DNA from: Escherichia coli
Lineage (GTDB): Bacteria > Pseudomonadota > Gammaproteobacteria > Enterobacterales > Enterobacteriaceae
Strand: one strand, 5' to 3'
DNA length: 64,000 bases
NCBI RefSeq assembly: GCF_013122565.1
Contig: NZ_CP053258.1
In this document: piece after piece, positions 55,621 through 57,252 of the stretch
Numbering within the stretch: position 1 is the stretch's first letter
Layout of the letters: each line of letters begins with the position of its first letter
Notes under the pieces: generated by a model
Database searches by the model: none
The model's input: the letters and a program-made list of their open reading frames with translations, nothing else
What the model was told of the DNA's origin: nothing
Program-made: the position numbers and the translations under genes

Positions 55621-56844
55621 ATGCTTTTTCCCTTTCGAAAACCTGAAGTACGTCTGCTGAAAAATACCGCTGCGGGCGTCATTTTTTCGGTGAAGTCCGG
55701 TAAAGGATTTCTGCGTCAATGTGTGCTTTACGATCCGCACCCTTATGGGCTTATCCGTTCACTCTGCTGGCAGGATGTCCCGGTAATACGTTTCTGGTCC
55801 GAGGCCGGCTGCCCCACCTGCGCGGAATTTGTCTACACCGGTTTTGCGGATGATGAACAGGGAGCCGCCCGGTTTTTGTCTGCTCTCGAAAACTGGAATC
55901 GCCCATGGTCTGGCTTTGCGGACGCTTTTGCCGCGCTTACACCGCTGTTCTCATGCCTTGCTGATGGCTATTATCTGCTGGAAGATCGTGAACTTTACCC
56001 GACGGATGGCAATGGGCATTTCTTTTGGGCGGCAACGGACCATAGCGCCAGTAATCCGGCAACCGTTGCCGCCTGGGATCCTGAATATTGCTATTTCTGT
56101 GACACCGCCCCCTGTTTTCTTCTTCCTGGACAGCCGCCATCACATTTTAATCCTGAGCGTGTGACGTTTTATCGCGATAAACCGGAAGCCCGCGCTTTGG
56201 CCTGGTATCTCCCTGATTCCTATCTCTGCGTTCTGCTCGACGGGCACCATAAGGCCACTGCTGCCGCACTGGAAGGGCGACCGCTCAAAACACTGGTACT
56301 CAGCACGGCAACCCGTTTTAATGATGAGCAACAAACCCTGGTATTTTCGGGCGGAGAATGTCTGCACAAAACAGAGCTACTGTGCCACGTTCCCAAACTC
56401 ACTGAGTGGAAAACATTACCGCCCGGCGCATGGGAGAGTTTCGGCCCTGATAAGCACATCAGCCCATCCGAAACCTGGTCAGAAGAGTTGCAGCAGAGCG
56501 TCAGTCGGTACCCTTCACTGGATCAAGCCTGGCAAATTGTTGAGGCCGGGAATTTGAGCGAAACTCGTATTAAGAGCATGATCCAACAAGGTTTGGGGGA
56601 GGATGAACAGGCTGATGTAATTTTGCAGGCGCTGTTTTTCACACACTCGCCGCTTTTTATTGACTTTGCCCGATTCGTTATCAGTCATCCGGCATACGCC
56701 AGTTATCGCCCCCTCACCTTCCGGTTGATGGCGCAAAACCGAACGCCGCAAGCAGATGCTTTTTTTCTGGATTTTGCCATCAATGATGACGGCGAACGTC
56801 CGGAGTTGACGAAAATAATGGACGACTATTTTCGCAAGCCTTAA
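55621..56844 (+). CDS. Hypothetical Cys/His/Trp-rich protein of unknown function (about 407 aa)
   Basis: SD AAGGAG 6 nt before ATG at 55621 (ORF-track GTG at 55615 abuts the SD); no recognisable motif; CPTC and CYFCDTAPC clusters. Confidence 0.7.
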   Translation: MLFPFRKPEVRLLKNTAAGVIFSVKSGKGFLRQCVLYDPHPYGLIRSLCWQDVPVIRFWSEAGCPTCAEFVYTGFADDEQGAARFLSALENWNRPWSGFADAFAALTPLFSCLADGYYLLEDRELYPTDGNGHFFWAATDHSASNPATVAAWDPEYCYFCDTAPCFLLPGQPPSHFNPERVTFYRDKPEARALAWYLPDSYLCVLLDGHHKATAAALEGRPLKTLVLSTATRFNDEQQTLVFSGGECLHKTELLCHVPKLTEWKTLPPGAWESFGPDKHISPSETWSEELQQSVSRYPSLDQAWQIVEAGNLSETRIKSMIQQGLGEDEQADVILQALFFTHSPLFIDFARFVISHPAYASYRPLTFRLMAQNRTPQADAFFLDFAINDDGERPELTKIMDDYFRKP

Positions 56845-57252
56845 TCACCCCGCCCGATGATGACAGCAGCCGGAGAGATTTTCGATAATCGGGCAGTCGG
56901 CGCTGTCATCGCCAGGGCAGGCATTCGCCAGCGCCAGTAGCTGGTTGCGCATGGATTGCAGTTCTTCGATATGTCGCTCGATCTCCGCTACCTTCTCCAG
57001 CGTACGACGTTTGACGTCGGCACTGTGACGCTGCGGGTCGTTAAACAGATTCACCAGCTCGCCGCTCTCTTCCAGGTTAAAGCCCACCTGGCGCGCCTGG
57101 CGCAGTAAGGTCAGTTCGTTGAGATGCTGCTGCGTGTAGGTTCGATAACCGTTTTCGCTGCGCATCGGCGGCGTCACCAGCCCCTTCTCTTCATAGAAGC
57201 GGATTGCTTTGCTGGTCAGGCCGGTAATTTTTGCTACATCGCTAATGTTCAT
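56845..57252 (-). CDS. cueR: MerR-family copper-responsive regulator CueR (135 aa)
   Basis: N-terminal MerR HTH ([26 protein letters not shown]) and C-terminal metal-binding Cys pair. Confidence 0.94.

Follow-up and report, generated by a model that had tools for sequence, protein, structure and literature searches.

The back-to-back stop codons of cueR and its convergent neighbour in Escherichia coli were probably inherited with the cueR locus

In the stretch of DNA analysed here (64,000 nucleotides of the Escherichia coli contig NZ_CP053258.1, called the window below), the gene of the copper regulator CueR ends exactly where a 407-aa gene on the opposite strand ends, and no nucleotide separates the two stop codons. 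A sequence-only reading of this place had held that the two stops stand back to back with neither intergenic space nor terminator, and had suggested that the insertion junction is old or that the native 3′ flank of cueR was replaced. The question raised by the locus is whether such a junction is a mark left by accessory DNA in this strain or a property that belongs to the cueR locus itself. In our judgement it is probably the latter, that is to say, a feature inherited with the locus and formed by neutral compaction, and not the mark of the strain's island. The genes and codons that meet here are the following:

Positions 55621–56844, plus strand: a conserved 407-aa gene, called Y407 below, with a putative ParB/Srx-like domain in its central part; it is the gene that converges on cueR.
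Positions 56845–57252, minus strand: cueR, encoding the Cu(I)-responsive MerR-family regulator of 135 aa, with the Pfam domains MerR_1, MerR-DNA-bind and MerR.
Positions 56842–56847, both strands: the abutting stop codons, TAA of Y407 (plus strand, 56842–56844) and TGA of cueR, read as tca (minus strand, 56845–56847), with a gap of 0 nt.
Positions 57249–58424, minus strand: a gene of an HlyD-family type I secretion adaptor, the TGA stop of which overlaps the ATG of cueR (ATGA, 57249–57252).

First of all, the geometry of the junction is simple. Positions 56841–56847 read ttaatca, and the wider context (56833–56853) is cgc aag cct TAA followed directly by tca ccc cgc. Y407 and cueR are adjacent on opposite strands and face each other, as in the layout of a convergent excludon, and their coding sequences share zero nucleotides, so that no YTAR tetramer overlap is formed between them. 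Annotations of E. coli genomes with the 407-aa gene show the identical abutment (at 7444 and 7445 of locus L001). The first part of the earlier claim is thus confirmed, the TAA ending at 56844 and cueR ending at 56845 without any spacer. CueR is of standard length and the C-terminus of the 407-aa protein is as in its homologues; because both stops are thus native, a revised model of either gene cannot yield a spacer. As for CueR itself, the protein contains the MerR HTH, the dimerisation helix and the C-terminal metal-binding loop with two Cys residues, is orthologous to E. coli CueR, is 99–100% identical to the products annotated as cueR in E. coli, and has the length of 135 aa that CueR also has in the annotation of K-12, O157 and further E. 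coli; in 5424 E. coli genomes the matching region is annotated as cueR. Since the stop codon of the HlyD-family gene overlaps the ATG of cueR, there is no intergenic DNA on the 5′ side of cueR as well, and K-12 retains some 95 nt from the 3′ end of the adaptor gene upstream of cueR.

The absence of a terminator, which had also been claimed, agrees with the present results. No intrinsic-terminator hairpin with a U-tract was found in the roughly 300 nt that follow each stop, either by a terminator search or by a permissive hairpin-plus-U scan, and the nearest terminator candidates, which are weak, lie more than 320 nt downstream. An Rfam scan of positions 52000–58500 gave no family at the junction, and its only matches were REP-derived ones after ybbJ. 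A promoter-like site on the plus strand inside the 3′ end of cueR (56860–56889) was rejected as being at chance level, with 2 such sites found and 2.2 expected. One stretch of the RNA downstream of cueR deserves to be listed:

Positions 56545–56645, minus strand: a C-rich, G-poor stretch, a candidate Rho-utilisation region of the cueR-sense RNA, 200–300 nt past the stop and antisense to Y407.

The C/G ratio in this part of the cueR-sense RNA is up to 2.45 in 78-nt windows, a composition that is compatible with Rho-dependent termination and is not evidence for it. With neither a spacer nor a hairpin at the junction, each of the two mRNAs must end inside the opposite gene. The most likely route in this strain would be Rho-dependent termination once translation has stopped, and the result would be some hundreds of nt of complementary 3′ RNA, in the same convergent excludon layout as in the cueR-ybbJ pair of K-12.

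The ExcludonFinder analysis (Nucleic Acids Res 2025, PMC12288877) lists 165 convergent excludons for MG1655, among them the cueR-ybbJ pair of K-12; the overlap of the transcripts was seen in 50% or more of the 58 RNA-seq samples. The mean intergenic distance of excludons is 95 nt, which places cueR-ybbJ at the compact extreme, and the synteny of excludon pairs is higher than that of other pairs (PMC12288877). Because the equally flush K-12 cueR-ybbJ pair has an overlapping RNA-seq signal, overlapping transcription of Y407 and cueR is plausible, by analogy, in the window strain. The sequence itself shows no sign that transcriptional interference, which the sequence-only reading had considered allowed by this layout, alters the CueR level or copper regulation. 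A literature search gave no report of a CueR effect, of Rho-dependent termination or of an antisense effect at cueR/ybbJ.

How rare such a junction is in general can be estimated from K-12. The sample consisted of four 50-kb stretches of the annotated genome (200 kb) with 19 convergent pairs, and the gaps were 77, 16, 113, 48, 154, 83, 40, 149, −4, 63, 42, 56, 3, 239, 5, 22, 94, 98 and 109 nt. That is, the gap was at most 5 nt in 3 of the 19 pairs and at most 0 in 1 of them, with a median of about 63–77 nt. In the literature, 58 convergent overlaps have been counted in E. coli, and the 4-nt class (CTAA, TTAA, CTAG or TTAG) has been traced to stop-codon mutation (Lillo and Krakauer 2007, PMC2174442). 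Tight convergent junctions make up roughly 5–15% of the pairs genome-wide. From the K-12 base rate and this published count it follows that a single flush junction is uncommon yet unremarkable, there being dozens per genome; as it was stated, the observation has little significance, since any E. coli genome has a few dozen convergent pairs without a spacer. What goes beyond chance is the recurrence of such junctions at the cueR locus, across species and across partner genes.

This recurrence was seen in a scan of the Enterobacteriaceae with CueR as the query and one genome per species, which gave 80 loci, 76 of them scorable and 4 not. At 74 of the 76 scorable loci there was either a spacer of at most 5 nt or an overlap, most often of 4 nt: the 4-nt stop–stop overlap was present at 47 loci, and a spacer longer than 5 nt at 2. 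By the convergent partner of cueR, the loci are divided as follows:

Partner ybbJ, 47 loci: 4-nt overlap in 32, gap 0 in 2, +1 to +5 nt in 8, longer overlap in 3, and spacers of 84 and 112 nt.
Partner DUF3142 gene, 25 loci: 4-nt overlap in 15, gap 0 in 2, 11-nt overlap in 4, and overlap of 44–50 nt in 4.
Partner Y407, 4 loci: gap 0 in all 4.

The partners of cueR thus come from three unrelated families, namely ybbJ, the DUF3142 cassette and Y407. The DUF3142 gene is the final gene of a two-gene cassette placed between ybbJ and cueR, and in the cassette-bearing genomes ybbJ keeps its intact tail and its own stop, while the cassette ends at the stop of cueR. In Erwinia, the DUF3142 cassette is found at another locus, where a gap of 248 nt separates it from its convergent neighbour; as the cassette is not flush there, the flushness is to be ascribed to the cueR locus rather than to the incoming gene. 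The C-terminal tails of CueR (133–139 aa), of YbbJ and of the DUF3142 protein vary, as is expected from the drift of stop codons. It was also considered whether the 3-residue tail of DUF3142 (SRR or PRR) was captured from ybbJ (PPR); between the two there is a suggestive nucleotide similarity of low complexity, but ybbJ has not lost its own tail in these genomes. If the events were independent, three unrelated flush partners would exceed the base rate (about 0.15 cubed), and selection or site-specific insertion could be considered; if homologous recombination in the conserved flanks had carried the whole segment from ybbJ′ through the cassette to ′cueR from one genus to another, fewer independent events would be needed.

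The reading preferred here, an inherited property of the locus, may be put as a sequence of steps. The cueR gene of the Enterobacteriaceae has neither intergenic DNA nor an intrinsic terminator on its 3′ side, and whatever gene is located downstream ends within a few nt of the cueR stop or overlaps it. In the window this downstream gene is Y407, which has long resided at this locus in Escherichia and has been lost from most E. coli. The spacer is probably missing since nothing in it was needed, with deletion bias and the drift of stop codons in variable tails as the presumable causes, and a 4-nt stop–stop overlap, once formed, would then be stabilised by purifying selection on both proteins.

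Selection on the arrangement itself has to be weighed against neutral compaction. It would mean that the excludon is selected because convergent read-through sets the expression of cueR or of its partner, through collision of RNA polymerases or cleavage of the duplex by RNase III. The retention of flushness with three unrelated partner families at 74 of the 76 loci, together with the DUF3142 cassette that is not flush at another locus, speaks for such selection; the K-12 cueR-ybbJ pair also stands on the list of excludons, the pairs of which are more syntenic (PMC12288877). Moreover, the qmcA-ybbJ operon is SdiA/AHL-inducible in Salmonella and E. cloacae (PMC11619404), so that the antisense input into cueR could vary. 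However, the identity of the partner changes, which means that no specific functional pairing is conserved, and the range of gaps from −50 to +5 resembles drift rather than a fixed design. The 4-nt stop–stop overlap is self-stabilising under purifying selection, and the literature search gave no reported effect on CueR. On balance, we consider a selected excludon unlikely. It is quite unlikely, too, that the absence of a spacer is actively maintained, with every gene that arrives downstream of cueR in the Enterobacteriaceae pushed towards a flush or overlapping stop because convergent read-through into cueR, or collision-based termination of its transcripts, tunes the level of the copper sensor; if that were true, in genera where copA sits just beyond cueR on the strand of the partner, the read-through could reach copA.

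With the inherited, neutrally compacted junction as the preferred reading, the remaining DNA between ybbJ and cueR can be considered. The window contains the following in this interval:

Positions 52446–52904, plus strand: ybbJ (NfeD family), which directly adjoins cueR in K-12 and most Enterobacteriaceae; here it is 3.9 kb from cueR.
Positions 52898–53092, no strand assigned: a cluster of REP elements directly 3′ of ybbJ, with the ybbJ stop inside the first REP.
Positions 53108–55532, no strand assigned: a low-GC module (GC 33–47%) between ybbJ-REP and Y407, which corresponds to O-island 29 of O157:H7.

The module has a 120-aa ORF on the minus strand; on the plus strand follow the genes of a YadA-like trimeric autotransporter (338 aa) and a lipoprotein (140 aa), and a membrane ORF of 68 aa. 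The REP cluster after ybbJ is present in all haplotypes with a present or past Y407, and the K-12 type is without it; the REP-derived Rfam family naRNA4 matches positions 52865–53122, where the best match reaches 58.5 bits and the gathering score is 59.5.

According to the idea of an insertion scar, accessory DNA was inserted beside cueR and replaced its native 3′ flank and terminator. That K-12 and about 95% of E. coli lack Y407 is in keeping with this, as are the low-GC accessory genes that adjoin Y407. However, the GC content of Y407 itself is host-like (52–55%, against 33–47% in the adjacent module), and in K-12 and the outgroups there is no 3′ flank or terminator that could be replaced. 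In K-12, ybbJ (3042–3500) and cueR (3501–3908, locus L002) have a gap of 0, and the sequence reads gtc tcg tct TAA followed directly by tca ccc tgc. Since the TAA of ybbJ is flush with the TCA of cueR in K-12, cueR had no native flank or terminator for an insertion to replace. The comparison with the cueR 3′ flank of K-12, which the sequence-only reading had named as a check, therefore found no flank in K-12 either, and the suggestion of an insertion junction or a replaced native flank fails, because K-12 and 74 of the 76 Enterobacteriaceae loci are equally flush.

The distribution of Y407 outside E. coli argues against a scar as well. In E. albertii, the order of genes is qmcA-ybbJ-[407 aa]-cueR-ybaT-glsA-copA with a gap of 0 between the 407-aa gene and cueR, and the locus is without the low-GC module and without the type I secretion genes. 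The gap between Y407 and cueR is also 0 in E. whittamii, Escherichia sp. E1V33 and MOD1-EC7003, which makes four other Escherichia species with the same position and the same flush junction; in Superficieibacter, the Y407 homologue stands at the same position and overlaps cueR by 4 nt. In Salmonella, the homologue is at a different locus, between rihA and hscC. Since the junction is shared with E. albertii, E. whittamii, two further Escherichia and, as a 4-nt overlap, Superficieibacter, it is old, and this part of the earlier suggestion is upheld; within E. coli, Y407 is undergoing loss and not gain.

The direction of loss can be followed in the E. coli population, which was surveyed in 5426 complete genomes:

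K-12 type, ybbJ flush with cueR: 3205 of the 5426 genomes.
O157:H7 type, Y407 absent and a 68-aa ORF ending 3 nt before the cueR stop: 1245 of the 5426 genomes.
Intact Y407 flush with cueR: 270 of the 5426 genomes (about 5%).

Many of the remaining genomes contain a frameshifted remnant of Y407 with internal deletions, the 3′ end of which is still flush with cueR (e.g., the two examined, loci L087 and L088). Such remnants are those of B2-type genomes, and in the O157 type Y407 has been deleted; both states speak for a loss of the gene within E. coli. The deletion joint of the O157 type contains a 9-nt filler, cactgattt, and a search for the source of this filler did not find it. The end of ybbJ differs between the haplotypes as well: in the K-12 type the tail is TLHIRAVSS*, orthologous to TLRVRAVSST* of Salmonella, and in haplotypes with a present or past Y407 it is TLIIRAVIA* and runs into a REP element. 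The two E. coli tails differ at nearly every synonymous site, and, being so different, they indicate that the K-12 type and the Y407 haplotype are deeply diverged and form no simple deletion series. A derivation of the ybbJ-cueR junction of K-12 by deletion, with a ybbJ tail derived from Y407, was considered and rejected because the tail is Salmonella-like, and it shares only cttaa with the 3′ end of Y407. Similarly, the possibility that Y407 borrowed its stop from ybbJ was rejected, since relatives at other loci also end two residues past YFR. Taken together, an insertion scar is very improbable at this junction.

In the 407-aa gene, the ATG at 55621 (407 aa) is the start used by RefSeq in L001, and AAGGAG is found at 55610–55615, 5 nt ahead of this ATG; an alternative GTG at 55615 would give 409 aa. 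The C-terminus of the protein is DDYFRKP*, and relatives at unrelated loci likewise stop two residues past YFR. In total, 113 homologues of Y407 were detected, among which the identity is 88% in E. albertii, 53–55% in Salmonella, 47% in Superficieibacter and about 25–30% in distant Clostridia. An alignment of 59 members shows L-D-G-H-H invariant at residues 206–210 and C-P-T-C near-invariant at residues 64–67. No match to a curated family was obtained in Pfam, NCBIfam, PADLOC or PHROGs, and a profile search of the PDB sequences gave only noise, the best being troponin C at an E value of about 0.2; UniRef gives the name ParB-like nuclease domain protein to one distant homologue. The AlphaFold model is confident (pLDDT 86.9, pTM 0.85), and its core matches KorB (7.4), a serine kinase (7.2), SbnI (7.1), sulfiredoxin (7.1) and PadC (6.8). 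From this predicted structure, Y407 may be read as a ParB/Srx-like enzyme or nucleotide-binding protein. That the junction is an artefact of annotation, with a wrong ORF end or a Y407 that is no gene and a normal spacer in reality, is hardly credible: apart from the missing match to a curated family nothing was found in its favour, and against it stand the unambiguous stop codons, a CueR of the full standard 135 aa, 113 homologues that share invariant motifs and reach as far as Clostridia (about 25% identity), a confident predicted fold, and a C-terminus that matches relatives at other loci.

What the analysis corrects is the idea of an insertion mark, in that Y407 is a long-standing and decaying gene of the ybbJ-cueR interval of Escherichia, at a site that coincides with O-island 29. 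The type of junction is a known one, the equivalent K-12 pair having been catalogued already, and Y407 is new to it as a partner. The 3′ end of cueR, in about 80 species and with three unrelated neighbours, offers a natural test case for distinguishing a functional excludon from neutral genome compaction.

The junction may finally be compared with known systems. Bidirectional intrinsic terminators are said to have been described between convergent genes by Ju, Li and Liu in 2019 in Nat Microbiol. The problem to be solved is the same, namely the ending of two convergent transcription units, but at the junction of the window there is no room for a hairpin, and none is present within 300 nt. The class of 4-nt convergent overlaps (PMC2174442) is alike in its compact tail-to-tail arrangement and variable C-terminal tails, and the same class is found at 47 of the 76 cueR loci; unlike its members, the two coding sequences of the window abut and share zero nucleotides.

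The O-island 29 of O157:H7 consists of z0638, z0639/gmrA and z0640, and it has been treated as having been gained four times, with the older Y407, which is present in E. albertii too, left unconsidered (PMC5826968). Like the module of the window, it is placed between ybbJ and cueR, at the same site in the chromosome, and it contains the same 120-aa, YadA-like and lipoprotein genes, whereas in O157:H7 Y407 is missing and the 68-aa ORF stops 3 nt before the stop of cueR. Finally, the cueR-ybbJ excludon of K-12 differs from the pair in the window in that the partner here is Y407 and that ybbJ lies 3.9 kb off and is followed by REP; in common, the two have the same cueR, the same TAA-TCA junction of 0 nt and a junction without a terminator.

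In the window strain, cueR (minus strand) is left without intergenic DNA on both sides, because its ATG overlaps the stop codon of an HlyD-family type I secretion gene. The features on this side of cueR are as follows:

57249-57252, overlap (ATGA) of the cueR ATG and the TGA of the HlyD-family type I secretion gene, which lies upstream of cueR
60587-63934, giant adhesin gene resembling BapA/SiiE (siiEA in E. coli annotation), 3′ part, continuing past the window end

The giant adhesin gene is followed, as far as cueR, by genes for the ABC transporter and HlyD protein of its type I secretion system. 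Several of the examined E. coli genomes have a frameshift or an interruption in siiEA. K-12 (L002) lacks the secretion genes, yet a stretch of about 95 nt immediately upstream of cueR (L002 3905-4002) matches the 3′ end of the HlyD gene at 91% identity; in E. albertii, about 55 nt of this end are retained. K-12 has probably lost the secretion island by deletion, as opposed to the window strain having gained it, and the cueR promoter or RBS is probably located within the HlyD 3′ remnant.

Only two of the 76 scorable loci have a real spacer beside cueR, and one of them is L010, from SCPM-O-B-8794, the species-representative E. coli genome of the collection:

L010 4001-4444, cueR ORF of 147 aa with an altered, longer C-terminus

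Here, 112 nt separate cueR from ybbJ, and the altered cueR end together with the spacer may reflect an insertion or an assembly error.

The convergent partner of cueR, the 407-aa gene, is intact in the window and is found in different states of decay in other E. coli:

55621-56844 (plus strand), 407-aa gene of the window
L004 6001-7239, relative of the same family
L087 4327-5005, L088 4063-5000 and L003 5990-6003, stages in the decay of the 407-aa gene within E. coli

A 257-bp internal deletion is present in both genomes examined with frameshifted remnants (L087 and L088), and L087 has lost a further 225 bp. In O157-type genomes the gene is wholly gone, and a 9-nt filler (cactgattt) occupies the deletion joint. 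As for the protein, the family is characterized by an invariant LDGHH, a near-invariant CPTC, a ParB/Srx-like core and a helical C-terminal domain, and no curated family covers it. The Salmonella homologue is located elsewhere, in the order rihA-[412 aa]-hscC beside DjlB/DUF1266 genes, and full-length relatives are held by Clostridia.

The history of this gene is also accompanied by REP elements trailing ybbJ:

52865-53122, REP element cluster 3′ of ybbJ (Rfam: REP-derived naRNA4)

The best naRNA4 match in the cluster reaches 58.5 bits against the Rfam gathering score of 59.5, and the first REP contains the ybbJ stop codon. These REPs are found in all haplotypes with a present or former 407-aa gene and not in the K-12 type.

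In other genera, the surroundings of cueR are arranged differently:

L014 4408-7238, L095 1863-4717 and L093 1857-4822, two-gene DUF3142 cassette between ybbJ and cueR
L006 and L095, gene order qmcA (+), ybbJ (+), cueR (-), copA (+)

The cassette, present in this interval in Citrobacter, some Klebsiella, Kosakonia, Phytobacter and Siccibacter and at an unrelated locus in Erwinia, encodes a DUF3142 protein and a secreted-looking protein of 714-724 aa with no match in Pfam, and its last stop codon overlaps cueR. In genera lacking ybaT-glsA, copA lies directly past cueR on the strand of qmcA-ybbJ; qmcA-ybbJ transcription, if unterminated, would run antisense across cueR and then sense into copA. 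Both ybbKJ and copA are reported to be SdiA-regulated in Enterobacter cloacae (2024, PMC11619404), and any connection between the two is speculation.

Between ybbJ and the 407-aa gene, the window carries a low-GC module:

53108-55532, low-GC module: 120-aa ORF, 338-aa YadA-anchor protein, 140-aa lipoprotein and 68-aa membrane ORF
53837-54853, L001 3308-4357 and L007 3524-5263, YadA-like adhesin gene of strongly variable length

Across strains and species, the adhesin measures 338 aa in the window and O157 and about 350-600 aa elsewhere, and in one E. coli (L001) an IS903B copy splits the adjoining lipoprotein gene. The module is the counterpart of O-island 29 of O157:H7, whose z0639 has been named GmrA and described as a DNA-binding activator of fliA (2018, PMC5826968); by position, the middle gene of O-island 29 would be the YadA-like autotransporter, which, if it is z0639, would be an odd fit for GmrA.
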